A program made the translations under genes and the position numbers. The notes beneath the pieces were generated by a model, which saw nothing but the letters and a program-made list of their open reading frames with translations, had not been told where the DNA came from and ran no database searches. 64,000 bases of DNA from Candidatus Baldrarchaeota archaeon (lineage in GTDB: Archaea > Asgardarchaeota > Baldrarchaeia > Baldrarchaeales > DXJG01). Below are positions 16,723 through 51,935 of this stretch, piece after piece. Every line of letters begins with the position of its first letter. Within the stretch, counting starts at the first letter, position 1. Where the stretch lies: contig DXJG01000007.1 in the NCBI GenBank assembly GCA_019056805.1, positions 1,992 through 65,991 on the forward strand. Direction: 5' to 3'.

Positions 16723-17955
16723 TTGTACTCTTTATGGTTTATATGCTTGTGGTTTGCATGTTCAACGTTGGTAATTATATTAGCTATTTGGTTTGAAAAA
16801 ATAAGAAAAGCAAGAATAACAGAAATCTTTCAGGAAATTTTCTTTTGGTTAAAAGAGAAATCTGAAAGAATACGTTATGAAAATCATAAAAACCCTAGAA
16901 TTACAGCTGAGTTAAAACCAGAATGGCAATTAGATCAGGTTGAAGTTACAACGTTTATTGATAAATATGAACACTATTACGACTACTATATGTTACGTGC
17001 ATCTGAAAGATTTAATCTTAGGATTTTAGGTGTAGGTGAGGGGAAACATTTTGTAAGTCTTGCTATAAAAGATAAAGTCCCTTTTGATAGAAGTGTTTTA
17101 GGATCAGGGTTTGCAGAATATGTAAAATCTGGAGATCCAGTATTTGATCATTGGCATATCATTAGGAGTAAAACACCTCAAGCCGCTCTCAAACTTTTAA
17201 AAGACGATAAATTTAGAAGCTACATCAGTAATATACACAAATTAAGAATTTTCAAAATTGAGGGAGATGGAACTCTAAGTTTTACTGTTGAATGTAACTA
17301 TGATCCAATATCTGCTAAAAATGCCATTTTGGCTATGAAAAGAGTATTAGAAGTTCTATCACCAAAAACTAAGGAAAAAACTGCCGTTAGTGAAAGGGTT
17401 AAACCCGCTGTTTTAAAAGCTGAACCTCAGAAAATTATAGATCCCGAATTACTTTTAAACTTAAGAAAAGAATTTGAAAAATTATCGACCCATGTTTCTA
17501 AGTTAGAGTTTAAACCCTTGGAGGAAAATTTCTCTAGAGTGATCATTACTCCTTTACTAGGCGAATTCGATTACGTGCAATATGAAATTGCTGAAAAATT
17601 GAAAGTAGAAGCAATAGACGACCTTAAGAAAACTGTAGAAAAACCCATTACAATTGAAATACGTCCTAAAGAAGTAACGTTATCATTAGGTCAAAAAATA
17701 GCTTTTATTGAGGAAATCAAGACATTATTTGATATTAGGTGTGAGGATCAAGAAGTTTTAAGAAGAATTTCCGAAGCATACATACTTTTTGATTCTTTGA
17801 GCAAAATCAAAGAATTGTCTATCTTCAGCATAAAGTTGCAAGATTCAACGTTGAAAATATGTTTAGAATGTAGTGTCGATCCTGAAAACATCAGAAAAGC
17901 TTATGAAGCAGTTAAAGAAGCTGTCAATCTGGTTAAATTCCACCTATTAATCTAG
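16723..17955 (+). CDS. Uncharacterised membrane-anchored protein, paralog family member 2
   Basis: Same architecture and conserved blocks as 15334..16560; tandem arrangement. Confidence 0.75.
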   Translation: MYSLWFICLWFACSTLVIILAIWFEKIRKARITEIFQEIFFWLKEKSERIRYENHKNPRITAELKPEWQLDQVEVTTFIDKYEHYYDYYMLRASERFNLRILGVGEGKHFVSLAIKDKVPFDRSVLGSGFAEYVKSGDPVFDHWHIIRSKTPQAALKLLKDDKFRSYISNIHKLRIFKIEGDGTLSFTVECNYDPISAKNAILAMKRVLEVLSPKTKEKTAVSERVKPAVLKAEPQKIIDPELLLNLRKEFEKLSTHVSKLEFKPLEENFSRVIITPLLGEFDYVQYEIAEKLKVEAIDDLKKTVEKPITIEIRPKEVTLSLGQKIAFIEEIKTLFDIRCEDQEVLRRISEAYILFDSLSKIKELSIFSIKLQDSTLKICLECSVDPENIRKAYEAVKEAVNLVKFHLLI

Positions 17956-30954: not shown

Positions 30955-31653
30955 TTATTTTGTGGTGTCTAGTTTTTTGGAGAGTTCTTCTATGGTTATT
31001 GGAAGTGCGTATTCAAATGTACATGCTTTTGCTGAATTAATCTGGCATTCCACTTCTTCTGATTTAACTACAGGTACTCCTAGGTATTCGAGTGACCCTA
31101 ATATGAAACCGTTTACAAATTCACATACTTTTTTATTTTCTGGTTTTCCATCGCAAGGACAATTCGCAACTGAAATAGTTATTTTTCGATCTGTTGGTTT
31201 AAATTTTTCCACTCTATAACTTAATCTTGGCAACATAGTGGGAACAAATATACCTAGTACATATTCGAATTCAATAGGTTTACTTTCTCCTTTAAGTTGC
31301 ATATCTTGATATTTAGAGCATAGTTTTCCCAGTTTATATCCGATTTCAAAAGGTGAGGGCAAGTGTTTTTTCTCAAGAAACTCATCTAATACTTTGATGA
31401 GGCTTTGTATAAGGAATCTTGCTATGTCGGTTTTTCTATATTTGAAGGTTGTACGAAGAAGCCAGAAAGTATATTTTCCTATATTTCTACTAACAACAAG
31501 TCCGGCTTTTTCCAGTTCTGGCATATATTTTGCGATCGTATTACGATGTCTCTTTGTAACTTCGGATATTTCCTCGATTGTCATGCCCCACACGGTTCCT
31601 TCTAAGGCATTTAAGATCTCTTCAACTATTTTTTTATTTAGTTTCTTGATCAA
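30955..31653 (-). CDS. HTH-type transcriptional regulator with C-terminal Cys-rich V4R-like ligand-binding domain
   Basis: N-terminal winged-helix pattern (MTIEEISEVTKRHRNTIAKYMPELEKAGLVVS); C-terminal CPCDGKPENKKVCEF...ECQINSAKAC. V4R assignment is tentative. Confidence 0.7.
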   Translation of the reverse strand: MIKKLNKKIVEEILNALEGTVWGMTIEEISEVTKRHRNTIAKYMPELEKAGLVVSRNIGKYTFWLLRTTFKYRKTDIARFLIQSLIKVLDEFLEKKHLPSPFEIGYKLGKLCSKYQDMQLKGESKPIEFEYVLGIFVPTMLPRLSYRVEKFKPTDRKITISVANCPCDGKPENKKVCEFVNGFILGSLEYLGVPVVKSEEVECQINSAKACTFEYALPITIEELSKKLDTTK

Positions 31654-31736
31654 CTCTGGTACTCACCTTTGGCACTGCTTTGACTGATACTCTCCTACTC
31701 TTTCATCTAAGTTAATAATCATTACCATATATAAAA

Positions 31737-31784
31737 ATGTGCATTAATGCACATAAAGTTTATATGTGCATTAATGCACATATA
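31737..31784. promoter_or_regulatory. Two copies of a perfect palindrome ATGTGCATTAATGCACAT (second copy extended to 24 bp TATATGTGCATTAATGCACATATA), centres 27 bp apart
   Basis: Read directly from the sequence; lies between the divergently transcribed regulator gene (start 31653) and the ABC operon (start 31887). Candidate operator pair. Confidence 0.6.
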
Positions 31785-31886
31785 CATGTAGTTACCTATA
31801 CACTAATCAAGATCCTAGTACTACGGGTGGAAACCGTGGGACAAAAGAACCCCTCAGACAGTAATAAGCAAGGAAAACCGGTTCAT

Positions 31887-33008
31887 ATGATCTCCATTGC
31901 TGGCGAAATCTTCGAAACAAAAGTATTAGCAGTAATTCTACCAATGTTTGCAATAATGGAGAGTTTGAGTTTTCTAGGAAACTTTTACACAGTTACATCT
32001 ATCTTTCAGACACCTCTCAACTACGTTACAAGCATTATCGTAATTTTCTTCAGTCTTCTAGGCACATATGGAACAGTCAAGAAAAATAGGTTTTTGCTTC
32101 ATCTATCATTACTAGCACCCATCACGATTATAATTTCTACAATTCAATTTCTAATTATTTCTAAAACTTCCCTGCAAACTATTTACCTGATATCTGGAAT
32201 TTCTGTTTTAGGAATAAGCTTACTTTGCCTTTACACTTCTTATAGAACCTTATCCTATTTACAAACTTTACAATCTTCCATCTCAGAAACACGAGAGAGG
32301 ATAAAAAGTGAGTATACGGTGGAACTTATTGATGTGGTAAAAATATACAAGATAGGGCCAATTGAGGTTCCAGCATTAAACGGTGTGAATCTTAAAATTA
32401 AGAAAAGAGAGTTTGTAGCAATAATGGGTCCTTCAGGTTCGGGTAAATCAACTCTTCTACATATAATTGGTGCATTAGATCGACCTACTTCAGGCAAAGT
32501 TATCATTGATGGAGTAGATATTTCCACCCTCAGCAATGATGAACTTGCAAAACTGCGTAATAAAAAAATTGGCTTTGTTTTTCAAGCATACAACCTAATT
32601 AACAGATCTACAGTGCTTAGAAACGTTGAGTTACCTGCACTTATAGGAGGAACGTCTAAAAAAGAGCGTATAAAGAAGGCTATTAAACTACTTGAGACCT
32701 TAGGGCTGAGTGATACTATTTATAGGAAACCTAAGACATTAAGTGGCGGTCAACAACAGCGTGTGGCTATTGCTAGAGCAGTAATCAATGATCCAGAAAT
32801 CATTTTGGCTGATGAACCTACTGGAAACCTTGACTCTAAATCAGGTAGAGAAGTTATGATGTATTTAAGAAAAATGAATAGAGAATTAGGAACAACCATA
32901 ATTGTTGTTACCCATGATAGAGAAATTGCTGAGATGACTGATAGAATAATTCACATTCGAGATGGAAAAATCATTGGAGAAGAGGTTTTAAGGAGGAAAG
33001 AAACATGA
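31887..33008 (+). CDS. ABC transporter ATP-binding protein (MacB/LolD-like) with an N-terminal four-helix membrane segment
   Basis: Walker A GPSGSGKSTLL, Q-loop, signature LSGGQQQRVAIARA, Walker B ILADEPTGNLD. Start set at the first ATG after the palindrome region; an in-frame GTG further downstream would give a conventional ATPase without the membrane segment. Confidence 0.85.
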   Translation: MISIAGEIFETKVLAVILPMFAIMESLSFLGNFYTVTSIFQTPLNYVTSIIVIFFSLLGTYGTVKKNRFLLHLSLLAPITIIISTIQFLIISKTSLQTIYLISGISVLGISLLCLYTSYRTLSYLQTLQSSISETRERIKSEYTVELIDVVKIYKIGPIEVPALNGVNLKIKKREFVAIMGPSGSGKSTLLHIIGALDRPTSGKVIIDGVDISTLSNDELAKLRNKKIGFVFQAYNLINRSTVLRNVELPALIGGTSKKERIKKAIKLLETLGLSDTIYRKPKTLSGGQQQRVAIARAVINDPEIILADEPTGNLDSKSGREVMMYLRKMNRELGTTIIVVTHDREIAEMTDRIIHIRDGKIIGEEVLRRKET

Positions 33009-34639
33009 AGAAACCATATACATTTTTAATTATTGCGATTTTGATGATATTTATCGTAAACATAAGCTTTATGAATGTAGTCTATGCTCAAACTTCCGTG
33101 GATTTTGAAATACTTAGAGTTGTTTGGGGAACTCCCCAAGATAATCCTATAATTGTTAATCCGGGAGACACAAATGTACCTCTCACAATATATGTGAAAA
33201 ACAATTCTAGTGAAAGCCTTGTAGGTGTTAGAGGAGAATTAAATCTTACAGAACCGTTTAGGCATACTGAAAACAATAATTATTCTGCTATCTCTATCGG
33301 GACACCCATTGAAAGTAGCAATGTTCTTTCGCCAACAGGAGAAGTTTTACCATGGGGCACCTTTACCCTAACATACCATTTAAACATAAATAACACCGCT
33401 AAGAAAGGCACATACACGTGTACATTAACCATATACTACACAGTAAACTCCAGTACCCTCGGTTATGTCCCAGGCGTACCTAGAACCTATTCCGTAACAA
33501 TTATTATATATAATCGAGCACCATCTATTGAATCTTATCGACCAGCCGATCTAAATGTCGCTGTTTATGTAAATGATAGTGTAGAGTTTTTTGTTAAATG
33601 CAGCGATCCAGATAACGATACTTTGAGCTATGAGTGGACTTTTGATGGCGAAGTTGTTGCAACTACAAATAATTATACCTATATAGCTACGGAAGATGAT
33701 ATTGGAACTCATAATTTAGAGTTTGCAGTTGACGATGGCGAACTTAGAACAACTATGACATGGACCATCACTGTTACAAAAACAATCATAACATATGTTA
33801 ATGTAAGTAGTAATTATCTTTTTGGCGGCTTTGAAACAGAAGTAAACATAACAATCAGAAATAATGCATGGGACGGAACTGTCCAGATTTCCTTTGGTAT
33901 TCAATCACCTCTAGTTATTCATGGAAACAGTTCTTGGACATTTAAGTCAGTGTTTCCAAATCAAGAACTTACCGTACCCGTAGTTATTTATGTTCCTAAA
34001 GCTGCTATAGGTAACACGTTCACAGGAACCTTAACAATAAGTTACGACGATGAATATGGAAATAGCTATACAGAAAACCATAACATTGGTTTTGTGGTCA
34101 GAGGCCAGGTGTCTTTGGTTGCTTATGATTATGCAATTATACCCAATCCGGTTTCGCCAGGTGAAAAGGTTTCAATCAGTGCAACTTTATTGAATAAAGG
34201 TACAGTGACGGCAATGTTTGTTAATGTATCGATTCAACCAAATGAGGTTTTACTTTTATCTCAAGAAAGTAGTAGCTATATTGGGGAAGTTGAAGAAAAC
34301 TCTCCAGTTCCCTTTACAGTTTCGGCCTATGTTAAGTCAGATGTCCAAAATGGAACGTACCCAGTAATAATTACTATTACTTATACAGACGATTTATTCG
34401 AAGAACATTTGTTTAACATTACAGTGGAAATAACAGTACAAAAGTCGTCTGGAGACGAAACAGCGTCTGAAGAAAAAGTTGGTTTCCTTGAATTACTTTA
34501 TCGCGGTGGTTTGACCATCTTAATAAGTGTAGTAACGTTAATCGCAATTGTAGTGCTTTACCTTAAAAGATCCGCAAAACCTCTGCCTACTTCTTTCATG
34601 TTTGTAAACTATCCGCTTGGTGGTAACATTGAATATTGA
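33005..34639 (+). CDS. Secreted/surface protein with PKD-like beta-sandwich domains and C-terminal TM anchor, encoded inside the ABC operon
   Basis: Signal peptide MKKPYTFLIIAILMIFIVNISFMNVVYA; PKD-like segment SDPDNDTLSYEWTFDGEVV; C-terminal helix LTILISVVTLIAIVVLYL followed by KRSAK. Start overlaps upstream stop (ATGA). Confidence 0.8.
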   Translation: MKKPYTFLIIAILMIFIVNISFMNVVYAQTSVDFEILRVVWGTPQDNPIIVNPGDTNVPLTIYVKNNSSESLVGVRGELNLTEPFRHTENNNYSAISIGTPIESSNVLSPTGEVLPWGTFTLTYHLNINNTAKKGTYTCTLTIYYTVNSSTLGYVPGVPRTYSVTIIIYNRAPSIESYRPADLNVAVYVNDSVEFFVKCSDPDNDTLSYEWTFDGEVVATTNNYTYIATEDDIGTHNLEFAVDDGELRTTMTWTITVTKTIITYVNVSSNYLFGGFETEVNITIRNNAWDGTVQISFGIQSPLVIHGNSSWTFKSVFPNQELTVPVVIYVPKAAIGNTFTGTLTISYDDEYGNSYTENHNIGFVVRGQVSLVAYDYAIIPNPVSPGEKVSISATLLNKGTVTAMFVNVSIQPNEVLLLSQESSSYIGEVEENSPVPFTVSAYVKSDVQNGTYPVIITITYTDDLFEEHLFNITVEITVQKSSGDETASEEKVGFLELLYRGGLTILISVVTLIAIVVLYLKRSAKPLPTSFMFVNYPLGGNIEY

Positions 34640-35828
34640 AAAGTATCTTTCTCTTCTACCCCTTTCCTTTGAAGCACTAAAGGAACGAAAGTTACGTTCT
34701 ACTTTAACAATTCTCATGGTACTTGTTGGTAGCGGTCTTCTTGTTGCAGTTAATGGGATTAGTACAGGAACTTTAACTTATATTGACCAACAATTTTCGA
34801 ATTTAGGTGCAAACTTGATAATTATGACTCCTAGAGGCACAGATTTTGAAATTGATGATAATATAGTTAAGGAAGTTTCTCGTATTGAAGGTGTAACTGA
34901 GACTATTCCCTTTATACAATCGGTAGTTCGTATAGAGTCTAGGAGAGAAAGCCAATCAGTAGTTGCAGTAGGGGTAGATCACTCTAAGCTCCACTTAATA
35001 TTTCCAACCCTTAAATTAGAAGAAGGAAACCTTGTGTCTTACACAGACAGTGTAGGAATTGTTCTGGGCAATTTGGTTGCTTATGGTTCAGGCGGAGAAC
35101 CTTTCGCAACAGTTGGGCAAACAGTGAAACTAAGGTATAGTACTACGATTGAAGGAGAACAAGTCGTATTTGAGAAAAATTTCATAGTTCGTGGAGTATT
35201 GGAATATATAGGTAGTGGTTTAATACCTGTAGATCAAATGGTTTTCATCTCGCTCCCTGCAGCTAATTCGTTTTTTGAACGACACAACAAATATGATGGA
35301 ATATATATAATAACGGCTGATCCTTCTTTGAACGATGAAATTATGGATCAGCTACAAGATATGTATAATGTAAATGTTCTTTCGCCACAAACTATTATTG
35401 AAGTAATTAATCGAGTTAGTAATGCAATATCATTCTTTGTAGGTAACATAGCTACGGTATCACTTCTTGTAGCTTCTATCGGAATTATTACAACTCTTTG
35501 GACCTCTGTACTCGAGAGAATAAGGGAAATAGGTGTACTAAAATCCATAGGATTTCAAGAAAATGACATACTTGTTCTTTTCTTAAATGAAGCCGCTATT
35601 ATAGGTATGATTGGAGGGACTTTAGGTTTAATTTTTGGAGTTATACTTGCTCGTATTCTCATGATAATCATATCACCAGAATTTGCAACCGTTATACAAC
35701 CTATTTTCACCGTGGAAAGCTTGGTTTCTACATGGCTTCTCAGTTTAGGTTTAAGCATAGTCGCTGGACTTTATCCAGCTTGGAGAGCGTCAAAACTCGA
35801 CCCAGTGGCAGCACTAAGACATGAATAA
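34617..35828 (+). CDS. ABC transporter permease, FtsX/MacB-type
   Basis: N-terminal TM (KLRSTLTILMVLVGSGLLVAV), large extracellular domain, then a C-terminal three-helix FtsX-like bundle; overlaps the preceding gene by 23 nt. Confidence 0.85.
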   Translation: MVVTLNIEKYLSLLPLSFEALKERKLRSTLTILMVLVGSGLLVAVNGISTGTLTYIDQQFSNLGANLIIMTPRGTDFEIDDNIVKEVSRIEGVTETIPFIQSVVRIESRRESQSVVAVGVDHSKLHLIFPTLKLEEGNLVSYTDSVGIVLGNLVAYGSGGEPFATVGQTVKLRYSTTIEGEQVVFEKNFIVRGVLEYIGSGLIPVDQMVFISLPAANSFFERHNKYDGIYIITADPSLNDEIMDQLQDMYNVNVLSPQTIIEVINRVSNAISFFVGNIATVSLLVASIGIITTLWTSVLERIREIGVLKSIGFQENDILVLFLNEAAIIGMIGGTLGLIFGVILARILMIIISPEFATVIQPIFTVESLVSTWLLSLGLSIVAGLYPAWRASKLDPVAALRHE

Positions 35829-35962
35829 ATCGGAATCAAAGAACATGAAGTTACTTACAATCTTTTAGCTGTTTTAAATAAGTTAATACGTTAACCCTTG
35901 AAATAGAAACCTTATATAAGATTTAGCTTTACATATAGTTTAGACTTGATAAGAGATAGGAC

Positions 35963-37525: not shown

Positions 37526-40500
37526 ATGGTAAACTGCAAATTTGAACTTATAATATATATTACAACATTGTATGCGGGTGTTCTGATGAAAAGGACCATC
37601 TGCATATTAATAATTTTAGTGATGACATTAGCAGCCATTATGGATATAGTTGCCATGCCAGAGATAGATAGCGGGTCCCAGATTATAACTGCAGATAGGA
37701 AAGTATCATCTAACCTTGAAGATGACGTTATAATGTTAAGTAAGAACCAACCGCTTGAAAACCTCACAGCAGAACGTTTTTCAATTATCAGTTCGTTTCA
37801 TCGTGCACTTGGTAACTTTACTGGAGATGATATGCCAGAAGTTGCCTCAATAGCATATATAGACGGTAGAATACATTTCTATGATCTAGTTAATCGACAA
37901 ACGTATGCAATTAACAATGACACAGCTGGACCACAAGCTTGGAATGGTCTAATAATTGCTCGAGGAAATTTTGACCCAGACCCATGGGACGAGGTCATTA
38001 CTATTAACAAGACTGGTATCATAACAATTATAGATGGCAATGCTACAACTATCAAACGCATCGATCTGAACATTACAGAAGATATTAGTAATGTCATGTT
38101 TTTCGAAGTAGTTGATTTAGATCTTAATGGATACTCTGATACAGTAATGCTACTTAGAACAAACACATCGAAGGAAATTTTTACTATAGTAAATGGGACT
38201 CCTAGCGCTACCGAGGTGGTTCCTACAAATTTAACCTTGTCTCTTGCATTGGATGTAACTATAGGCAACTTTGCAGCCAATGATGGATTAGAACTTGCAA
38301 TTGTATATTCTGACTATACAGTAACCGTATATAATTATACATTTCAGCGTCTTGTGAATAGTACTATTCCTAATGTTTGTAGGATAGCAACTATAAGCAA
38401 CGCATCTTGGCACTATGATGCCCTTATTGCACTACTTTTAACCACACCAAAAAATGTAACTATTTACAATGCAACCACGCTAACGCCGCTTGGCTACTCG
38501 ACGTTAGTCGACTTTTATTTGAATGTAAAACCAAAGGCAGCTGACCTTGATGACGACAAAACAAATGAAGTTATAATTCCTACAGCAGATGGATTTGCAA
38601 TTTTTGACCTAAACACAAATAATATTACAAAAACAGCTATTCTATTTACAAATAGCCCAACATATCTTATTACATCGAAAATCACTAGAGACCAGACCTA
38701 TGACTTTGTAATTGGCAACAATGAAGTTCTATTCATGTTTAAGGGTGTCAAGGGTAGTGTTGCAAAGCCGAGAATTCTGCGAAAAATTTCTGAGCCTTCC
38801 TATATTCAGACATGTGAAGTATGGCAATACGACACTGGCTTACCGGATCTTTTCGTTCTAACCGATCTAACTGATTTTTCTCTTTATGTTTATAGGTCAG
38901 ATTCTAGTGCGCCACGTCTTAGTGATTTGAAAGTCTATCCTACTAGACCAACAGTTGATGATAGCTATGTTTCTATTTCAGCAAAAATCATCGACGAAGG
39001 TGTTTTTGATAATCCTGTTTTAGTCTATAACATTACTACGGTCAGTGGTACACTTTTAGAGCAAGGAGAAGTTTTAATGGTATCAGAATCATATATGAGT
39101 GATACCTATCTTGTTTATCTTTCGGATTTAAAAGCTGGGACATATACTTTCAAAATTATTGTAACTGACAGCTACGATAATAGAGCGATTTACGATAACA
39201 ACGGTTCCCTATATACATTCAATGTTTACAGTAAACTTCTGTTTCGAACAACGCTTCAAACGGTTACCTTGACCGCCCCTACTATAACTAGTGATCATCC
39301 AATGGATTTAGGTAAGCTGGATGGAGATCAATATGATGATGTAGTAATTGGAGTTTCAGATCATGCAGAGATCATATGGGGTAACCATAGCGTTACAATA
39401 CTTGATACATGGGCTGATGTAGACAATGTGGAAGTATATGTTGCGAATCTGCTAGCTGGTTCAAACGACGATATATTAGTTTACTATTATAATGTTACAA
39501 GCTCTCAGTATCAAATTAATATTTATGACGGTTTTTCACTAGAGGTATCAAAAAGATATACGTTCACCTCGGAAGTTCAGAATTTTGCATTTGGCGATGT
39601 TGACGGTGATGGATATGAGGATTTAGTGTTTAGTTTAGATGTAAATACTACACACGACAAACTCATCGTAATGAATACGGTAACCAGTGTAACTTTGCTA
39701 GAAAAAGAAATTATAAACACCCTTTACGTTGGAGTGTTCAATCTTACAGAAGACCAATACATGGATGTTATTGCGGTATCATTTGACTCCTCAACTAAGA
39801 TACTTAATTTAACTGCTTATGCTGGTGAACAAAATTTAAACATGATATACTTTTTCAACCAGTCTTTCCCAAGCGACGAAGATGTATATGAAGTGGTGGT
39901 TTTTGTCGATAACTTCATAACAACTGAATATTTGCAGGTTGCACTTGCCACAGGTTTATCGGGACATGACAAAATATTTTTATTGAACGCTAGTAACGGC
40001 TACTATTTAAAAGAGCGCGAAATACCATATATAACAGGACTGACTCCTGTTGATTACGGATTCGATGGGATCAAAGAGATATCCCTTATTTTATACGATA
40101 ATTCACTGATTATAGTTAGTTTGGCTAACGAATCCTTCAGTTTTAAGAAAGATTCGTTACTCCCAGAAACGCCTATTTCAACATTTTGGGATCATTTCGA
40201 TGAGGATAATTATAAGGACTTGATATATGTTCTATCTGATGAGATCGCTGTATATTCAATTGCTGAGGATCGTTTCGAAGTTGTACAGTATCCGTTCAGA
40301 ATGATACATTCGGCGAGTATTGGTAAATTCTTTGAACTTCCAAGCAAAGACATCTGTTTCCTTACGTATGACTTGATTTTTGAAAAATACATAAACATAA
40401 ATATGTTCTATAGACCAAACATTACTTTGTCCCTTAGCAACAATATTGTAGCTCAAGGCGAATCCACCGAGGTAATCGTAGAGATTAGAAACGTGTTTGG

Positions 40501-42442
40501 AGATCCTGTCACTGAAAGCGATATACTGGGAATTCTTGAGTTGGATGGAAGTGTTTTGCAAACAAGTAGCTTTACTTCACATGGAAATGGTATATACAGC
40601 CTTACTGTTAGTGCAACGAACATGCCTTTAGGATACTACAATCTCTCTGTGATTATAGATGATCCCTATTATGGTACTTTCACGTTCAGTGAAAATCTTA
40701 CGGTTACGGGTCAAATAGATGGCGTACTTATAAGCCCAGATAAAGTTCCACAAGGCGGATTTGCACTACTAAATGTAACTCTATCAGATCAATATGGGTA
40801 TCCTGTAACAAACGCGATCGTCAACATTACTTTCAATGGGCAGGTTTACACACCCGATAAAATCATTAGAAACATGTATCTCTTCAAGATATCAACAGAG
40901 AATTTGTCTGTTGGACTATATACCATTATGGTTACGGCGGATCATGAATTAACGCCGCCGATACAAATAAATTCTACTATTAGTTTAACGGGGATTCCCC
41001 ATGTTTCAGTTAGGGGAAACGGAATTACAGAGCCTCCTGTAATTCAAGGGACAGCATTCGATGTAGCTTTGGATTTGTATGATGAATACAATTATACAAT
41101 TGATGGTGCAACTATAATTGCATATTTCTTTGGAAAGCCGTACACATTTACGGACTTAGGAAATGGAACTTATATTGCTAATGTACCCACGGAAAATGTA
41201 CCAGGAGGTATACACTCTCTCTTAATAGAAGTGAATCATGATTACCTTGAAAGACAAGTGTTTAGGGTAAATGTAACTGTTATAGGTAACATAAACCTAG
41301 AGGTGACTATTTCCCCGGATTACATTGAACAAGAGTCTACGATGGAAGTTAGAATAGTGGCTGTTGATGACTTTGGGTATCCGATAATAGGTGCAAATGT
41401 TAGAATTCTATTTGCAAATGAAACTTACACTGCTGAGAACATAAGGGACAATATATATGTCGCAACAATAAATGTAGGAAAAATATACCATGGTGAATAC
41501 CCACTTACAATAGAGGTTAACGGACAATTCTACACGACAAAGATTGCAGTGGAGACAGTATATGTTTATCCGAAGATACCAAAACTTGATTTATCACCAC
41601 AAACATTAATGACATTACTGGGAATTTCAATGGGTGTTTCGTTCGTAGGTTTATCATTATACTATGGCATTTCATCAAAATTGACTAGGAGTCTTTCAGT
41701 AGATGAAAGACAAAGACTACTTATGAGTTTCAAACCCTTAGACCTTACCTACTTTGCACTTGCCCTACTTCTGTTCGGTACGCTTGGAACTGCAGGCTAT
41801 CTTTACATAAAAGAATTCTACGAGTTAGCTGTGGCAGTTCTAGGGCTGGCATTAATGGAATTGTTATTAGTATATGGTATATGGCTTTACAGAGACGCTG
41901 CATATACACTAGTTACTGAGAAAATGTCTATTAAACGGGCTGTTGCAAGTTTATGGCACATAGTTTTAGCACCAATGATAGTACTAGGGATATTTGAATG
42001 GGGAGCGAACATCGAATGGTTTGCATACTATCTTCTTGGAGAAACAATAAACCTTGGTGTAATAGAGTTACCGTCACTGTACGTCAGTCTATTAGGTACT
42101 TACATTACTTCAATAATAGTTTTAGTTGCAAACATTTACCTTAATTCGAGAAGACTGAAGAACAGATTCCGTGAAATGAGAGTGGGTGGAACACCGGAAA
42201 AGGTAATAAACGAAGAGAAGATTATACAGCTTGGTAAAATGTCTAGTTCGATTAGAATTAAGTTCTTCGGTTTCCTTGTAATTCTCGGTGCAAGCTTAGT
42301 TTCAACGACACCGCTGCTACAGTACTATCAGTTAGGCGTTGTTGTAGTTCTTCCACTGATTTTCATAGTAGTAATTCCATATATAGTTTCTAAGATTCTA
42401 GGTGCACTAGGATTTACAAAGAGAACTATAGAAAGAGGATAG
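37526..42442 (+). CDS. Giant surface protein (1638 aa) with FG-GAP-like and Ig-like repeats and a polytopic C-terminal membrane domain
   Basis: Signal peptide (MKRTICILIILVMTLAAIMDIVA); D-x-D/N-G-D-G-Y-x-D motifs (DLNGYSDTV, GDVDGDGYEDLVF, LDGDQYDDVVIG); Ig-like repeats; last ~270 aa contain about 6-7 hydrophobic helices. Likely true start is the ATG encoding MKRT (about 60 nt inside the ORF). Confidence 0.85.
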   Translation: MVNCKFELIIYITTLYAGVLMKRTICILIILVMTLAAIMDIVAMPEIDSGSQIITADRKVSSNLEDDVIMLSKNQPLENLTAERFSIISSFHRALGNFTGDDMPEVASIAYIDGRIHFYDLVNRQTYAINNDTAGPQAWNGLIIARGNFDPDPWDEVITINKTGIITIIDGNATTIKRIDLNITEDISNVMFFEVVDLDLNGYSDTVMLLRTNTSKEIFTIVNGTPSATEVVPTNLTLSLALDVTIGNFAANDGLELAIVYSDYTVTVYNYTFQRLVNSTIPNVCRIATISNASWHYDALIALLLTTPKNVTIYNATTLTPLGYSTLVDFYLNVKPKAADLDDDKTNEVIIPTADGFAIFDLNTNNITKTAILFTNSPTYLITSKITRDQTYDFVIGNNEVLFMFKGVKGSVAKPRILRKISEPSYIQTCEVWQYDTGLPDLFVLTDLTDFSLYVYRSDSSAPRLSDLKVYPTRPTVDDSYVSISAKIIDEGVFDNPVLVYNITTVSGTLLEQGEVLMVSESYMSDTYLVYLSDLKAGTYTFKIIVTDSYDNRAIYDNNGSLYTFNVYSKLLFRTTLQTVTLTAPTITSDHPMDLGKLDGDQYDDVVIGVSDHAEIIWGNHSVTILDTWADVDNVEVYVANLLAGSNDDILVYYYNVTSSQYQINIYDGFSLEVSKRYTFTSEVQNFAFGDVDGDGYEDLVFSLDVNTTHDKLIVMNTVTSVTLLEKEIINTLYVGVFNLTEDQYMDVIAVSFDSSTKILNLTAYAGEQNLNMIYFFNQSFPSDEDVYEVVVFVDNFITTEYLQVALATGLSGHDKIFLLNASNGYYLKEREIPYITGLTPVDYGFDGIKEISLILYDNSLIIVSLANESFSFKKDSLLPETPISTFWDHFDEDNYKDLIYVLSDEIAVYSIAEDRFEVVQYPFRMIHSASIGKFFELPSKDICFLTYDLIFEKYININMFYRPNITLSLSNNIVAQGESTEVIVEIRNVFGDPVTESDILGILELDGSVLQTSSFTSHGNGIYSLTVSATNMPLGYYNLSVIIDDPYYGTFTFSENLTVTGQIDGVLISPDKVPQGGFALLNVTLSDQYGYPVTNAIVNITFNGQVYTPDKIIRNMYLFKISTENLSVGLYTIMVTADHELTPPIQINSTISLTGIPHVSVRGNGITEPPVIQGTAFDVALDLYDEYNYTIDGATIIAYFFGKPYTFTDLGNGTYIANVPTENVPGGIHSLLIEVNHDYLERQVFRVNVTVIGNINLEVTISPDYIEQESTMEVRIVAVDDFGYPIIGANVRILFANETYTAENIRDNIYVATINVGKIYHGEYPLTIEVNGQFYTTKIAVETVYVYPKIPKLDLSPQTLMTLLGISMGVSFVGLSLYYGISSKLTRSLSVDERQRLLMSFKPLDLTYFALALLLFGTLGTAGYLYIKEFYELAVAVLGLALMELLLVYGIWLYRDAAYTLVTEKMSIKRAVASLWHIVLAPMIVLGIFEWGANIEWFAYYLLGETINLGVIELPSLYVSLLGTYITSIIVLVANIYLNSRRLKNRFREMRVGGTPEKVINEEKIIQLGKMSSSIRIKFFGFLVILGASLVSTTPLLQYYQLGVVVVLPLIFIVVIPYIVSKILGALGFTKRTIERG

Positions 42443-46554: not shown

Positions 46555-47337
46555 TTGACCGATATCGCAATTTTGACAAAAGATCTAACGAAAATTTTTG
46601 GCCATATAACTGCCGTGAAAAATTTGAATCTAGAAGTTAAAAAGGGAGAAACTTTTGGTCTTTTAGGTCCTAATGGAGCTGGAAAAACCACAACTGTTAG
46701 AATGCTTAATGCAATAATAAAACCTACTTCTGGAACAGCCATTGTTGCTGGTTACGATATTCTTAAGCAACCAGATATGGTAAAAAGGAATACAGGGCTT
46801 TTACCTGAGACTCCTGGTATATATGAGAAGCTTACGGCTAGAGAATTTTTAATTTTTATTGGAAAACTTTATGATGTAGAAAGAGATATTTTGGAGGATC
46901 GTGTTGGTGATCTACTTAAAATATTTGAATTAGAGAATAGAGCTGACGATTTATTGGAAAGTTATAGTCGTGGTATGAAACAAAAGGTTTTAATTGCAGC
47001 TGCGCTTGTGCATGATCCTTCTATAATATTTTTAGATGAACCGACTGCAACTTTAGATCCCGCTAGTGCTAGAATGGTTAAAGATATGATTAAATTGCTT
47101 TCTGAAAAGGCTGATAAAACGATTTTTCTCTGTACACATATTTTGCCCGTTGCCACAGAGCTTTGTGACAGGGTTGGCATAATTGATAGAGGAGTTTTGC
47201 TAGATGTTGGTACACCCAAGGAGTTAATGGATAAAACAGGTACTGAAAGCTTGGAAGACGCTTTTATAAAACTAACTGGGCGTGAAAGGAAAGAAGCTGC
47301 AGAACTTTTAGAGTGGAGAGAACCATTACATCAGTGA
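46555..47337 (+). CDS. ABC transporter ATP-binding protein (ABC-2 type)
   Basis: Walker A GLLGPNGAGKTT, signature-like YSRGMKQKVLIAAAL, Walker B IIFLDEPTATLD. Confidence 0.93.
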   Translation: MTDIAILTKDLTKIFGHITAVKNLNLEVKKGETFGLLGPNGAGKTTTVRMLNAIIKPTSGTAIVAGYDILKQPDMVKRNTGLLPETPGIYEKLTAREFLIFIGKLYDVERDILEDRVGDLLKIFELENRADDLLESYSRGMKQKVLIAAALVHDPSIIFLDEPTATLDPASARMVKDMIKLLSEKADKTIFLCTHILPVATELCDRVGIIDRGVLLDVGTPKELMDKTGTESLEDAFIKLTGRERKEAAELLEWREPLHQ

Positions 47338-47346
47338 GGGATTTTT

Positions 47347-48948
47347 ATGGCTGATTGGAGAGTAATTGCTGAAAATGAGTTAAGATTAATGACGAGTCGT
47401 TTTCATAATAAAAGAAAACTTCTGATTGCTGTAGTACTTGTACCTACTGCAATATACTTTTACATTATTAATCATTTCCTAGCTCCCTTCTTTTCTTCTC
47501 CAGAAGTAAAAACAATGCTTGAAACATTTCCATCGATACTAGTATGGGTTCTTCATTTTTTATTGTTTTATGCTTTTGTTATGGCGGCTTTTACGCCTCT
47601 CTCCGGCACTTTACGTGAAGCTACAGCTGAACCTATCGAAGTACTTTTATCAACACCAATAAAGCCTCAACATGTCTTAGTAGGGAGATTTATTGCTAGA
47701 TCACTTATTTACATCATGGGAGCAATAATTTTGTTTGCGCCTCTAGATGTTCTGTTTTACATTGTTTATGAGTCTTCTATTTTAGCTCTTATAGTTGTAA
47801 ATTGTCTTATTGCTGTTATGGTAGCTGTTGCTGTATGGATTAGCATATTATCAATTTCAATTATTATGTCTAAATTTGGAAAAACTGAAAGAGGTCGAGA
47901 TATAGCGAAAGCTCTTAATTTAATTCTTGCTTTGTTACTCTTCATTTTTCTCTACGGAAGTGGATGGTTTAGTGGCTCTATTTCCCCGGAACAAGCTTCA
48001 AGACTCACCAGAGTTTTGGAATATTTGCCTAGTGGATGGGTTGCAAACATAATATCTGAAATAGTTATAGGAGTTTCGCCAGAGATACCACTATATGTAA
48101 ATATTGGGGCATTATCGATCTTTTGTGCCAGTGTATTTTTTATTGGTTACCATGCTGCTGGTCGTTTCTATAGCTTAGAGCCTGTTGAAACTGTAAAAGT
48201 CACTGTTATAAAGGAAAACTTTGGATATTCTTTTATTAGAAAAATTATTCCTGGTAAACTTGGTGAGTTGACAGTTCTTCACTTTAAGGAATTTGCAAGA
48301 TATATGGAGTCTTTGTCAAGGTTTGTTTATGGTTTAGCTATTTCGGTTTTTATACTTTATATGATGGCGATTTCTATGTCAAAAACTTCCCAGGGAATGG
48401 ATATACTTGTCTATTCTTTTGTGACCGTTTACTGTGTTCCGTTTATAACCTTGCTTGTGGCAGGAGATATCACTATTAGAGGTAAAGAGAAGCTTTGGAT
48501 TTTCCGTCACGCACCGAGAGGAATATTACTTTTCGTATTAGGAAAGTATATTCAATCGATAATTGTGCAACTTCCAATTGTTATCGCTGTGCCATTAACA
48601 TTTCATTTTCTTAATCCTAATCTTCCTATGAAATCTTTGATTGAATTAGCATTAATAGCTTTTACTTTGCTTTTTGGCTGTACAGCGGAGATTATTGGGA
48701 TTTTCTGTTTAAATCCTGCCTTTAAAGAAAAGAGTGCAAAATATACAATAAATACGCTGATTTATGTGGCTTTAACCATGTTTGTACCCATGTTCATATT
48801 TTTCGGAATTGTTGCATCTGGGTCGCCACCGGAACAAGGCTTAGAAAATCTATTAACAATTATTAGATGGGCGCCAGTCGGATTATCGCTACTCTTAGGG
48901 TTTACTTTAATGTTTCTGGGCATCAAAAATCTCTCACGAATGGAATAG
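47347..48948 (+). CDS. ABC-2-type transporter permease (multi-pass membrane protein)
   Basis: 533-aa highly hydrophobic protein immediately downstream of the ATPase gene (9-nt gap). Confidence 0.8.
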   Translation: MADWRVIAENELRLMTSRFHNKRKLLIAVVLVPTAIYFYIINHFLAPFFSSPEVKTMLETFPSILVWVLHFLLFYAFVMAAFTPLSGTLREATAEPIEVLLSTPIKPQHVLVGRFIARSLIYIMGAIILFAPLDVLFYIVYESSILALIVVNCLIAVMVAVAVWISILSISIIMSKFGKTERGRDIAKALNLILALLLFIFLYGSGWFSGSISPEQASRLTRVLEYLPSGWVANIISEIVIGVSPEIPLYVNIGALSIFCASVFFIGYHAAGRFYSLEPVETVKVTVIKENFGYSFIRKIIPGKLGELTVLHFKEFARYMESLSRFVYGLAISVFILYMMAISMSKTSQGMDILVYSFVTVYCVPFITLLVAGDITIRGKEKLWIFRHAPRGILLFVLGKYIQSIIVQLPIVIAVPLTFHFLNPNLPMKSLIELALIAFTLLFGCTAEIIGIFCLNPAFKEKSAKYTINTLIYVALTMFVPMFIFFGIVASGSPPEQGLENLLTIIRWAPVGLSLLLGFTLMFLGIKNLSRME

Positions 48949-48962
48949 TAAAATTTTATGTT

Positions 48963-51935
48963 CTAGGCTTCCGAGGTATTTTCTGAAATTTTTGATACTT
49001 CAGTTTCATGTTTGGAATGTTGCGGGTATATTATGAGTAGTTCTTTATTTTCCTTTAACTTTAGCACCGTTTTGTATAATTTTATTCTCTCTGATTTTGG
49101 TAATTTTTCAAGTTCTTTTGCTAATTTTGGCATGTAAAAGAATTGGTCTTGATTTGAAATTTTTTGAATGATTTCCTTTAAGGAGCTAGGTATTTTTCTA
49201 CTGTCTTCTATCTTGTACATTGCCAAATTTTCTTTTCCAAAGATCTCATATATGATCTCCTCTGTGCCATTAAAAACTCCTAAGTCTCCTCTCCAATTAT
49301 TAAAAACATCTTTGAATTTTTCTTCGAATTTTTGTGTAATTTCTCTAATTATTTCTTTATTTTTAAGTTTCTCAGTTGAAATAGCAATTGTATATGTGTG
49401 CTCTCCAGAGGAACATGTTAAAAATCTTGGCTCTGGATCTCCATATGATATCTCATCAAGATATCCTACTTTACCGTTACTAAGTTCTGTGTAAAATGTT
49501 TGAACAGCTTGTATGAACCCAGCTATTAATTCAGGACTTCTTTCCTCGCCACCAAAAATTTTAACGTCTCTTACTGGAAGCCCGCTCCTTTTCTCAACTA
49601 ATAATATCTCTTCTATCGATGAAATGGAAGATAAGTGTTCTATTTCATTAATCAATTTTGCGATTGATTTTTTTCTGTGCACAAAGTAGACAGATGAAGA
49701 AAAGAAGAAAAGAAATAAGAAAATAAGTTCTTTGAAATATTGTTTAACATTTTCTTTCACTTTTTCCAGTATAGGAGCTAAGGATAAGTATGGTGTTATT
49801 TCTATGGTTTTTTCCTCCGATTGTGAAGGTAAATATTCTCTACTTCCATTAAAGTACACTATTATTGTTAGGTTTCCAGCTGTTTGCATTTTAAAATTGT
49901 AAAAAGCTTTGCCCTCGTTATTAGTTACAAGCGTTTCATTCCACTCTCTAGTTGTACCGTTTAAGGAAGTGAATTTTAACATTAAAATTAATTCTTTACC
50001 TGGGACCCCTGTTCCGTTAATATCTGTTAGTGTTATTTCAATTCCTATGTTCTTCCCGACAGAGGCTTTTGAAGGAGCTTCAAGAATTATCCTTGTTGGA
50101 ATAGGATAAATAAGATTTAGGGTTATATTTACATGAGTTTCTTCATAATATTCTTTTATTACGTATATTGAAACGTTATACATTCCTTCTGTTAATCCAT
50201 TTGTACCAACTATGCCCTCGTAACAGTTTGTTATGTTATTATAAGTGAATTGAATTGTTCCTTTTATCCATTTTCCGTAAATATTTGCATCTGTTATATT
50301 CTCTCCGGTTATGCCATCGACACATCTAACTTTAATGGTTATATTTTCTCCTAAAAGATAATATTCGCTTAGATTTTCAACTATAATCTTTATGGTGTAG
50401 AAAACGGAAAATGTACTTATTCTATACCCTATTTCCGTTCCATTGTAGAATAGTATTGCTACTTTGTATTCTCCTTTTTCCACGTTTTGAGGTATCCATG
50501 TGAAATTACTGCCTTCACTTATGTTCTTCGTTTCTTCATGAATTTTCACGTCAGTTACGTTGTATATTGCCATGGTTAAGTTTCCATTTGAAACTGTTAC
50601 TGTTGATTTCCACTGTACAGAAAATTCTATTTTGTGGTTTATCGTAACATTTGCTGGGTGGTCTAAACTTTTTATATAGTTTATTCCTTGAAAAATTAGA
50701 AACCATGGATCACTCATATTTACTGTTATTAAGTTTTCCTGTCTATCTATTACGTTATTTGTATTGTTTTGCAATGTCCAGTCTGATGGAACATGGAATT
50801 TCGTGCTACAATTCAAATAGCCGCTGGGAAAAGTGTAAGTTGAGTTAACATACCATGTAACATTATCATAGTTTGTGTTAATGAAACAAGATGTGTGTAA
50901 CAATTCTTCTTTTAAATGAGTAGTTTCACATGTGATATTAAATTTAAGTAACCAACTTGCCGTAACATTTAAAATTACGGGATCTTCAGTGATAAGATTC
51001 GTAAAAGTCCATGTTCCATTTTCATTAACTGATATATTATTTACTTTTAATTCATAGTCTTGAAAACTAGTTAATAACGGGGAAAGATGGACATATTGCA
51101 AAAAATAGTCTACATCTTCAGGTATGAAACTATTAGAATCAGAGTCGTAGTAGTATGCATATCCTTCATCAACTCCGTCGGTTGAAGCTGCTGGTGTAGA
51201 ATCATTATATGCCAGCCAACATACGTCTTCACTTGCCGTTAAGGCTCGAGCATATAGGTGCAAGAAGAACGTGTTATCGTAGGTTTTTGATGTGTCAAGT
51301 AAAAGGGGTGGATCGATTGTTATGTTTAATTGTAAGTATTGTGTTCCACTAATACTCATAATTGTGGTGTTGCTGATGAGCGTGGTATCTGGGTACGGTA
51401 GAATCTGCTCTTGAATTATTGTTCCTGTCGCATTCATTATAGCCCAGTCAATTGTTATTCCAGATATCACAGAGATGTTTAACTTTACTTCTAAACTCGT
51501 AAGATAACATATGCGAGGAACTCGAAAAGACATTACTCTTGGATAATCTCCAATAGAAATATTTCCCAAGGGAAGAGGGTCTTCAGGGTGTTGCATTTCT
51601 ATTTCTTTTGTTAGATTTTGCGGCTCTATATTTGTGAAGTTTAAAGCTATCTTTTCTGTGTTAAACCCGTGGGTTACAATATTTAGCGGGCTATAAAATG
51701 CGTCATTTTTTGCATCGAGAGACCTAACATGTGTTGTTTCATTATTTATCCAGTTTTTGATTTGTATTGCTGTTAGGTTTGAATGAATAATTCTATCACT
51801 AGACAAGGTAAAATTTGAAGTACATTGGGAAGGAAATGTTGAATTGGCTAAAACCTGTGGAGGGCTCATTATTGCGAAAAATATTAAAATTACTACAAGA
51901 AGTGTTAAAGTCTTCAGTTTTTCCACCAGAGTCAC
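48963..51935 (-). CDS. Large surface protein (990 aa): signal peptide, ~700-aa extracellular region, single TM, ~240-aa cytoplasmic tail with roadblock/longin-like domain
   Basis: N-terminal MTLVEKLKTLTLLVVILIFFAIMSPPQVLA; hydrophobic helix IFLFLFFFSSSVYFV followed by HRKK at ~aa 725-745; tail IEEILLVEKRSGLPVRDVKIFGG...LIAGFIQAVQTF...NNWRGDLGVF is homologous to the C-terminus of the 7032..9194 protein. Confidence 0.85.
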   Translation of the reverse strand: MTLVEKLKTLTLLVVILIFFAIMSPPQVLANSTFPSQCTSNFTLSSDRIIHSNLTAIQIKNWINNETTHVRSLDAKNDAFYSPLNIVTHGFNTEKIALNFTNIEPQNLTKEIEMQHPEDPLPLGNISIGDYPRVMSFRVPRICYLTSLEVKLNISVISGITIDWAIMNATGTIIQEQILPYPDTTLISNTTIMSISGTQYLQLNITIDPPLLLDTSKTYDNTFFLHLYARALTASEDVCWLAYNDSTPAASTDGVDEGYAYYYDSDSNSFIPEDVDYFLQYVHLSPLLTSFQDYELKVNNISVNENGTWTFTNLITEDPVILNVTASWLLKFNITCETTHLKEELLHTSCFINTNYDNVTWYVNSTYTFPSGYLNCSTKFHVPSDWTLQNNTNNVIDRQENLITVNMSDPWFLIFQGINYIKSLDHPANVTINHKIEFSVQWKSTVTVSNGNLTMAIYNVTDVKIHEETKNISEGSNFTWIPQNVEKGEYKVAILFYNGTEIGYRISTFSVFYTIKIIVENLSEYYLLGENITIKVRCVDGITGENITDANIYGKWIKGTIQFTYNNITNCYEGIVGTNGLTEGMYNVSIYVIKEYYEETHVNITLNLIYPIPTRIILEAPSKASVGKNIGIEITLTDINGTGVPGKELILMLKFTSLNGTTREWNETLVTNNEGKAFYNFKMQTAGNLTIIVYFNGSREYLPSQSEEKTIEITPYLSLAPILEKVKENVKQYFKELIFLFLFFFSSSVYFVHRKKSIAKLINEIEHLSSISSIEEILLVEKRSGLPVRDVKIFGGEERSPELIAGFIQAVQTFYTELSNGKVGYLDEISYGDPEPRFLTCSSGEHTYTIAISTEKLKNKEIIREITQKFEEKFKDVFNNWRGDLGVFNGTEEIIYEIFGKENLAMYKIEDSRKIPSSLKEIIQKISNQDQFFYMPKLAKELEKLPKSERIKLYKTVLKLKENKELLIIYPQHSKHETEVSKISENTSEA

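Follow-up and report, generated by a model that had tools for sequence, protein, structure and literature searches.

The operon and its occurrence among archaea

This study concerns a 64,000-nucleotide stretch of DNA from a Candidatus Baldrarchaeota archaeon (GenBank assembly GCA_019056805.1, contig DXJG01000007.1, positions 1,992 to 65,991 of the forward strand), called the window below and numbered from its first letter. Its middle part carries a three-gene cassette encoding an ATP-binding cassette (ABC) ATPase, a surface protein composed of immunoglobulin (Ig)-like domains (hereafter the Ig protein) and a MacB-type permease. The cassette, its promoter region and a divergent regulator gene comprise the following features, with the basis of each assignment in parentheses.

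30955 to 31653, reverse strand: divergent regulator of 232 amino acids with an N-terminal winged helix-turn-helix (wHTH) and a C-terminal V4R domain (Pfam V4R and several wHTH models)
31727 to 31736, forward strand: TATA box TATATAAAAA of the putative operon promoter (sequence reading; role assigned from general knowledge of archaeal promoters)
31737 to 31754, no strand assigned: putative operator 1, a perfect 18-bp palindrome ATGTGCATTAATGCACAT abutting the TATA box (palindrome scan, relatives)
31764 to 31781, no strand assigned: putative operator 2, an identical second copy of the palindrome, 27 nt further on and covering the point where transcription is expected to start (palindrome scan, relatives)
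31825 to 31830, forward strand: Shine-Dalgarno (SD)-like GGGTGG, 5 nt before the GTG start (alignment of four relatives)
31836 to 33008, forward strand: ABC ATPase with a putative N-terminal membrane anchor, 390 amino acids (listing of open reading frames (ORFs), Pfam, alignment of starts)
N-terminus of the ATPase, before its membrane domain, forward strand: basic tail of 17 amino acids
approximately 31887 to 32294, forward strand: four-helix transmembrane (4TM) domain of the ATPase, followed by a flexible linker and then by the nucleotide-binding domain (NBD)
33005 to 34639, forward strand: bitopic Ig protein, 544 amino acids (ORF listing, AlphaFold2 (AF2) model, Pfam and PDB profile matches)
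34617 to 35828, forward strand: MacB-type permease, 403 amino acids (ORF listing, Pfam MacB_PCD and FtsX, PDB sequence matches)
35863 to 35876, forward strand: two T4 runs 3' of the permease stop codon, probably an archaeal terminator (sequence reading; function presumed)
approximately 35912 to 35920, forward strand: separate TATA-like box of the next gene, after the T4 runs (sequence reading)

The stop codon of the ATPase gene and the start codon of the middle gene share an ATGA (33005–33008), with AAGGAGG (32991–32997) located 8 nt upstream of the latter start, and the permease gene, which opens with a TTG at 34617, shares its first 23 nt with the end of the middle gene; at a related locus, L011, the codon aligned to this TTG is the ATG with which the permease gene begins. 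Because of these two overlaps, and because the permease gene is followed by the T4 runs and a fresh TATA-like box, the three genes look like a single translationally coupled operon; the ORF listing and our reading of the junctions agree here with the sequence-only reading, an earlier interpretation of the locus made from the letters of the window. Each gene overlaps or abuts the next and is preceded by an SD sequence of its own, an arrangement that fits the production of subunits in a fixed ratio.

The same earlier reading had described the third gene product as an FtsX/MacB-type permease with a large extracytoplasmic domain, and this is borne out by Pfam, with two matches above the gathering scores: MacB_PCD (66.5 bits, 5e-18, cut-off 27) at residues 28–248, i.e. 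nt ~34761–35414, and FtsX (71.9 bits, 6e-20, cut-off 25.5) at residues 278–396. The protein has a single FtsX domain and about four transmembrane (TM) helices, arranged as TM1, an extracytoplasmic MacB_PCD domain of ~220 amino acids and TM2–4 in the FtsX domain; in the hydrophobicity scan TM1 falls at residues 30–48, and five peaks in a C-terminal cluster at 267–386 were read as TM2–4. The NBD of the ATPase (nt ~32313–33005; Pfam ABC_tran, 5e-37) is of the MacB/LolD type, with all catalytic motifs intact. The best NCBIfam matches of the NBD are MacB, LolD, DevA and FtsE, those of the permease are LolC/E and MacB, and the PDB sequences matched by the permease are MacB, Streptococcus pneumoniae 5xu1, YtrF and LolC/F. 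By a sequence-level definition, the permease and the NBD belong to the type VII ABC (MacB/FtsX fold) superfamily.

Assignment to individual members of the superfamily failed in every case tried. The scores stay far below the equivalog cut-offs for LolCDE (lolCE 92.7 bits, cut-off 362.45; LolD 254.7, cut-off 307.75) and below those for FtsEX (22–35 bits against 225–255 for the FtsX models, 213.6 against 264.85 for FtsE). With regard to MacAB-type systems, the middle protein gave no match to HlyD, biotin-lipoyl or alpha-hairpin domains, and the comparison of gene neighbourhoods revealed no gene for an HlyD-type adaptor or outer-membrane factor kept beside the cassettes. A BceAB-type assignment found no backing either, as no kinase or response regulator occurs among the cassette neighbours in the window, which are the wHTH-V4R regulator, CDC48 and an acetyl-CoA-synthetase-like (ACS-like) gene.

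The Ig protein is Sec-exported, with a signal peptide at residues 1–29 and a C-terminal TM helix at 494–523 (nt 34484–34573). Its AF2 model (pLDDT 84.8) resolves, in order, the signal helix, four Ig-like beta-sandwich domains (D1, 30–170; D2, 171–260; D3, 261–368; D4, 369–480; all borders approximate), a disordered linker, the TM helix and a basic cytoplasmic tail. The sequence contains 15 N-x-S/T sequons. The sequence-only reading was right about secretion, length and C-terminal anchor, while the 'PKD-like' character that it gave to the whole protein fits only D2, and there below threshold. Indeed, all Pfam matches of the protein (Ig, PKD, Big_9, NPCBM_assoc) are sub-threshold: residues ~186–258 score 20.3 bits with PKD_3 (cut-off 26.3), 15.7 with PKD_4 (27), 22.1 with Big_9 (23.6) and 26.1 with Ig_2 (27), and NPCBM_assoc reaches 16.5 bits (24.4). 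Collagenase PKD domains were matched by the family profile in the PDB (5e-05 to 4e-04), and some distant family members do exceed thresholds (CARDB 41.4 and DUF11 35.2 bits in L054, DUF11 40.0 in L048). As far as such profiles tell, D2 is PKD/Big_9-like and the other domains are CARDB/NPCBM_assoc/DUF11-like. Foldseek, run with the model against the PDB, matched nothing more specific than multi-Ig arrays of a generic kind (among them HYDIN-like proteins, CD109, integrin legs and an S-layer protein).

D1 and D4 are the best conserved domains. The TM anchor, with a conserved GG...Y-R/K-R/K pattern, varies less than the signal peptide and the linker, perhaps a sign of a specific intramembrane contact. 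The C-terminus encoded by nt 34484–34639, like that of the relatives, consists of a GG motif, the TM helix and a Tyr plus Arg/Lys cluster, often the last element of the chain; tripartite sorting signals are laid out in a similar way, but no known archaeosortase motif is matched.

We scanned one genome per GTDB species with an alignment of the middle protein as the seed and obtained 46 loci, in all of which (46/46) the Ig-protein gene is clustered with a gene for a MacB-type ATPase and/or an FtsX permease. This synteny check thus shows that the surface-protein gene and the transporter genes stay linked. The genes share a strand at 45 of the 46 loci; in L043 a partial ATPase match lies on the opposite strand. 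All complete copies of the Ig protein have an N-terminal signal and a C-terminal TM helix. Approached from the ATPase side, the cassettes show the same three genes with differing flanks, the Ig-protein gene being found in all four reached from full-length ATPases and in both reached from truncated gene calls; the flanking genes are not conserved among cassettes. A word-indexed search with a broader alignment of the middle protein added almost nothing, and its named matches are all 'hypothetical protein'.

The window is identical to a JGI metagenome contig (L001). Its closest species-level relatives are metagenome-assembled genomes (MAGs) labelled Baldrarchaeota and Odinarchaeota, whose middle proteins are 80% identical to that of the window, which places the source among the Asgard archaea. 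ATPases with the 4TM domain occur in Asgard archaea (MAGs labelled Baldr-, Odin-, Njord-, Asgardarchaeum- and Promethearchaeati-), Bathyarchaeia and Thermoproteota, and an ATPase ORF of 232–272 amino acids lacking this domain is found in Nitrososphaeria (including Nitrosopumilus and Cenarchaeum), one Micrarchaeota MAG and Hecatellales. The gene order in Nitrosopumilus is permease-ATPase-Ig protein. Its Ig proteins share 22–24% identity, and their membership in the family is suggested by full-length phmmer matches (1e-23 to 2e-25), shared architecture and shared context. A conserved single-TM protein of ~110 amino acids is encoded after the Ig-protein gene at three Nitrosopumilus loci (L048, 6551–6886; L049, 6656–6976; L053, 6551–6892).

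The membrane domain of the ATPase

In the AF2 model of a 373-amino-acid form of the ATPase, the region before the NBD forms four helices (residues 2–29, 44–65, 68–91 and 95–136 of that form; pLDDT >90), joined to the NBD by a low-confidence linker (129–138). A homologue search with this form gave thousands of matches; among the best 120, about 110 are 340–430 amino acids long, have Walker A shifted to residue 140–230 and are predicted to possess 2–7 TM segments before it. The four hydrophobic helices that the sequence-only reading had seen upstream of the ATPase are hence matched by both model and homologues. In the alignment an invariant NBD of the MacB/LolD type follows an N-terminal part that is poorly conserved in sequence and constant in architecture.

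Comparison also speaks for translation of the region upstream of the NBD. An upstream open frame of like architecture is kept in more than 100 protein clusters, and the 140–200 codons concerned stay open in AT-rich genomes across phyla. The TM part is coding, since second codon positions change least and the ratio of non-synonymous to synonymous substitution rates (dN/dS) is low, 0.27 against the relative L056 (87% protein identity) and 0.31 against L011, the NBD values being 0.04–0.08. Taken with the conserved SD sequence and start described next, and with an explanation of the short public gene calls, these signs of purifying selection support a translated domain.

The open frame extends upstream to 31737, and the sequence-only reading had let the ATPase begin at ATG 31887. 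The start is most likely GTG 31836 instead, for four reasons taken from an alignment of the window with L056, L011 and L010: a GGTG(G/A)A, a 5-nt spacer and a start codon are kept; this codon, GTG in the window and L056 and ATG in L011, is aligned; the codon of L056 equivalent to 31887 is not a start codon; and the genes of the window, L056 and L011 are all exactly 1170 nt long if started at the equivalent of 31836. ATG codons at 31737 and 31764 were rejected as starts, the positions lying inside the operators, directly after the TATA box.

Public annotations of the gene conflict. JGI calls start inside the operator (31764 in the window, giving 414 amino acids), and PGAP calls remove the 4TM domain; discordant calls include L012 273–1556, L058 ~3440–4693 and L059 ~535–1842. 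The short NCBI calls of several relatives (230–247 amino acids; P0046, P0066, P0074 and P0082) are truncated: upstream of two calls of 230–231 amino acids the frame is open for 187–204 codons and matches a profile of the 4TM domain at 6e-36 and 2e-30. In L010 (3077–4196; 'Odinarchaeota' MAG AUK032) a deletion or frameshift where the TM domain meets the NBD breaks the ATPase into two overlapping ORFs; the gene may be misassembled or a pseudogene.

The 4TM profile detected the domain in 27 distinct ATPase genes of related cassettes. Its search against 1.84 billion representative proteins returned 14 matches, all to this ATPase family or its fragments, and no Pfam family was matched, so the domain appears to be family-specific; the profile searches of Pfam and of the 1.84 billion representatives likewise detected no relation to YknW/Yip1, tetraspanins or holins. 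Among cassettes without the fusion, no free-standing gene matched the profile, and a 142-aa 4-TM ORF at the Micrarchaeota locus L054, considered as a detached copy, gave no profile match and is unrelated. On this comparative evidence the fusion is genuine and specific to the family. The claim that it is atypical therefore needs a qualification: it holds against characterised systems, and not within one large archaeal clade, where the fusion is the normal state. Given the flexible tether and the absence of the domain from some lineages, it can most simply be understood as a built-in membrane anchor, docking or sensing roles being also conceivable.

Promoter, candidate regulators and neighbouring genes

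The TATA box is identical in the window, L056, L011 and L010, and the two palindromes are kept in the same alignment, amid intergenic DNA that otherwise diverges. The sequence ATGTGCATTAATGCACAT occurs twice in the window, both times at this promoter, with zero copies expected from shuffled sequences. Across cassettes, the motif TGTGCAT-N4-ATGCACA, usually in two copies and beside a TATA-like box, lies 5' of the ATPase gene in every cassette with the V4R regulator (the window, L010, L011, L012, L015, L017, L042, L056 and L057, from several Asgard lineages) and in none linked to a PadR gene. The wHTH-V4R protein and the motif thus make a candidate regulator-operator pair; placed as it is, at the TATA box and where transcription should start, the motif suggests repression by promoter occlusion.

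Members of the regulator family stand beside the cassette at eight Asgard loci and at two more reached from truncated ATPase calls. Their wHTH (W22–L65) is almost invariant, and C211 is invariant; the other cysteines are not universal. The protein recalls MsvR, an HTH-plus-V4R redox-sensitive repressor of methanogens that binds inverted repeats at promoters (PMC3729527), and the likeness extends to the domain architecture, cysteines in the V4R domain, divergent transcription and inverted repeats at the promoter. It is not an MsvR equivalog, however, the NCBIfam match covering only the HTH region (23.8 bits, 3e-05, cut-off 220). The operators also differ (TTCGTA-N4-TACGAA in MsvR, TGTGCAT-N4-ATGCACA here), and MsvR targets oxidative-stress enzymes, whereas the regulator described here stands beside an ABC operon of Asgard archaea.

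Ten cassettes from Bathyarchaeia and Thermoproteota have a divergent PadR gene instead; a palindrome search of the PadR-linked intergenic regions found only divergent, TATA-like inverted AT-rich repeats. At two further loci, from a Bathyarchaeota MAG (L047, 5798–6148) and a Nitrososphaerales MAG (L050, 7938–8249), a small ArsR-like wHTH gene, called by eye, follows the permease gene.

Two genes downstream of the operon were considered as parts of the module and rejected, as both are kept only in the closest relatives. The ACS-like gene is not kept beside the cassettes of other lineages; the second gene encodes a 1638-aa predicted surface protein (37526–42442, forward strand) with Invasin_D3, Big_1 and FG-GAP-like matches and a multi-TM C-terminal region. 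The window contains two other giant predicted surface proteins, of 2150 (258–6710, reverse strand) and 1440 amino acids (10782–15104, forward strand). A second, unrelated ABC pair (46555–48948, forward strand) encodes a 260-aa ATPase and a 533-aa multi-pass membrane protein, and is adjoined by the convergent gene of a 990-aa secreted protein (48963–51935, reverse strand). Paralogous membrane-protein genes occur in tandem (15334–16560 and 16723–17955, forward strand; ~410 amino acids) and dispersed (55941–56831 and 59877–60767, reverse strand; 296 amino acids, with near-identical N-termini).

Possible function and comparison with known systems

To our knowledge, bacteria are the only organisms in which MacB-type ABC systems are understood; each depends there on a specific extracytoplasmic partner (MacA, LolA, EnvC/PcsB or BceS), and we know of no characterised MacB-type system that dispenses with a periplasmic adaptor or another extracytoplasmic partner. 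In the archaeal cassettes the Ig protein is a likely fixed partner, being always present in exactly one copy, translationally coupled and equipped with a conserved TM anchor. The reading we favour, to which we give about an even chance of being correct, is that a local repressor and the three-gene operon form one unit for the inducible production of a type VII ABC mechanotransmission complex, in which the Ig protein is the fixed partner.

The operon would then build a complex of the MacB/FtsX fold in the archaeal cytoplasmic membrane. By analogy with MacB, LolCDE and FtsEX, the NBD dimer would hydrolyse ATP and the stalk helices of the FtsX domain would pass the movement to the extracytoplasmic domain, which would act on the Ig protein, or by way of it, the Ig protein being a stoichiometric accessory subunit. 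The Ig protein would be the archaeal counterpart of a periplasmic adaptor or extracytoplasmic partner and would span the space between membrane and S-layer, while the 4TM domain would keep the NBD at the permease. The regulator would repress the operon until its V4R domain senses a signal, perhaps a hydrophobic ligand or a shift in redox state, and PadR or ArsR-like regulators would fill this role in other lineages. Such a module may serve inducible envelope protection, or efflux, against membrane-active or envelope-active compounds. This role is suggested by the interchangeable stress- or ligand-sensing repressors and by the paralogous cassettes present in at least one genome (L038 and L040); resistance modules are often paralogous within a genome.

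A bolder version, which we put forward with considerable reserve, is that the four-Ig chain oligomerises around the extracytoplasmic domain of the permease and serves as a conduit or lever to the S-layer, thereby representing a new class of ABC adaptors, with the 4TM domain docking the TM helix of the adaptor or sensing the membrane and V4R acting as a redox or ligand switch.

Several observations weigh against a repressor-controlled complex of this kind. The association of the Ig protein with the permease is proposed from gene context, both structure models being of single chains, and the evidence gathered indicates no substrate. No catalytic or channel-forming domain is recognisable in the Ig protein, which also showed no likeness to a known adaptor in the Foldseek search of the PDB; its most conserved domain, D1, is the one furthest from the membrane anchor, not an obvious place for contact with the permease. 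The absence of the 4TM domain from the ATPases of Nitrososphaeria, Micrarchaeota and Hecatellales means that it is dispensable for the core mechanism, and internal in-frame GTG codons (32318 and 32333) may yield an additional, soluble NBD isoform. As to the regulator, its V4R match (30 bits, 5.5e-07) falls just below the Pfam cut-off of 31, and its CPC...C cysteines are lost in the Njord versions, so that redox sensing is not general.

The Ig protein might alternatively be the client of the ABC machine, which would extract, reposition or release it or help to assemble it into the envelope or S-layer. Extraction of membrane-anchored proteins by a MacB-type system is known from LolCDE, which acts on lipoproteins. 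A dedicated cargo would also be expected to show strict one-to-one linkage, and the end of the Ig protein, with its short motif, TM helix and basic cluster, looks like a tripartite sorting signal; the protein is moreover sequon-rich, as archaeal surface proteins are, and its Foldseek matches include the Haloferax volcanii S-layer protein (7ptp), though among generic Ig arrays. We nevertheless consider this scenario unlikely. One cargo per machine under a stress-type repressor would be odd for a structural protein of the envelope, neither an archaeosortase-like gene nor a recognisable sorting motif (PGF, PEF or similar) was found, no acceptor or chaperone gene is kept nearby, and the overlapping, coupled genes better match equimolar subunits.

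Quite improbable, in our view, is a role resembling that of FtsEX, with ATP-driven movement activating an extracytoplasmic enzyme or remodelling process in division or envelope turnover and the Ig protein adapting the complex to a partner encoded elsewhere. FtsEX does act in this manner with EnvC, PcsB, CwlO and RipC, the FtsE model matches the NBD with 213.6 bits, and an Ig protein devoid of an enzyme domain would need just such an external partner. All FtsX and FtsE equivalog models, however, stay below their cut-offs, the extracytoplasmic domain is of the MacB_PCD type, no hydrolase gene is kept in the neighbourhood, and control by local PadR or V4R repressors, together with paralogous copies in one genome, ill suits a housekeeping role in division.

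There is also little to recommend a function in adhesion or surface recognition, in which the Ig protein would be an adhesin or receptor and the ABC part would supply force or signal its state, for example during cell-cell contact of syntrophic sediment archaea. Ig arrays of the CARDB, DUF11 and PKD types are common in adhesins, distant family members score above the cut-offs of CARDB and DUF11, giant secreted Ig and FG-GAP proteins abound in the window, and the distal D1 is the best conserved domain; yet the ectodomain is short, at four domains, the family occurs also in free-living planktonic Nitrosopumilus, and nothing in the cassette points to a signalling output.

That the hydrophobic frame is an untranslated leader, with the ATPase starting internally and the three genes being neighbours by chance, is hardly credible: the short NCBI calls and the poor conservation of the N-terminal domain might suggest it, but the frame is open over 140–200 codons with dN/dS of ~0.3, a conserved SD sequence and start and pLDDT >90, the truncated calls carry the domain in frame upstream, and linkage holds at 46 of 46 loci.

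If the inducible complex that we favour exists, these genes encode a conserved archaeal counterpart of MacB-type systems whose ATPase is tethered to the membrane and whose partner is of an entirely different kind. Its carriers, Asgard archaea, Bathyarchaeia and marine ammonia oxidisers, are of great interest to both evolutionary biology and ecology. Were the Ig protein an adaptor, it would show how S-layer-bounded cells have answered the envelope-spanning problem of diderm bacteria. Were it, in addition, oligomeric, archaea without HlyD-type adaptors would have evolved a tripartite MacB machine of their own. No envelope-spanning apparatus for efflux or defence would have been defined before it in Asgard, Bathyarchaeial and ammonia-oxidising archaea. 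In practical terms, public gene calls of the ATPase that run into the operator or remove the membrane domain need correction, the candidate pair of wHTH-V4R and TGTGCAT-N4-ATGCACA could be used in studies of Asgard transcription, and the three proteins are a candidate complex for cryo-electron microscopy. Full-text literature searches found no description of this cassette, mentions of the COG1361 'S-layer domain' being generic only, and in databases the middle protein is named 'hypothetical protein' throughout.

The closest known pumps are MacAB-TolC of Escherichia coli, Spr0693-0695 of S. pneumoniae (5xu1) and YknXYZ of Bacillus subtilis. These employ an HlyD-type membrane-fusion protein with an N-terminal anchor, whereas the corresponding position in the cassette is taken by an all-beta four-Ig chain with a C-terminal TM anchor, and the outer-membrane factor of MacAB-TolC has no counterpart here. 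MacB carries its NBD on the same polypeptide, ahead of the permease part, whereas the NBD of the cassette is a separate polypeptide preceded by the 4TM domain. B. subtilis YknWXYZ, a pump of the MacB type, has a fourth component alongside ATPase, permease and adaptor, the small multi-pass membrane protein YknW. The latter is functionally reminiscent of the additional 4TM module, but it is a separate protein with no detected homology, whereas the 4TM domain is fused to the NBD.

With LolCDE and LolDF the cassette shares a separate LolD-like NBD and a permease matching LolC/E over its full length. It differs from them in scoring far below the equivalog cut-offs, in lacking LolA/LolB and a bacterial-type lipoprotein pathway, in its archaeal distribution and in its Ig partner. 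FtsEX has the same ABC fold and engages an extracytoplasmic partner rather than transporting a solute, as the cassette may do by analogy; FtsEX partners contain coiled-coil or hydrolase domains, however, and the Ig partner has neither, and the local stress-type repressors argue against a role in division. BceAB is set apart by a 10-TM permease with two FtsX domains and by a linked two-component system, both foreign to the cassette. The fold and the energy source of the module are thus already known from these systems, and its new elements are the class of the partner, the putative anchor of the NBD and the candidate regulator-operator pair.

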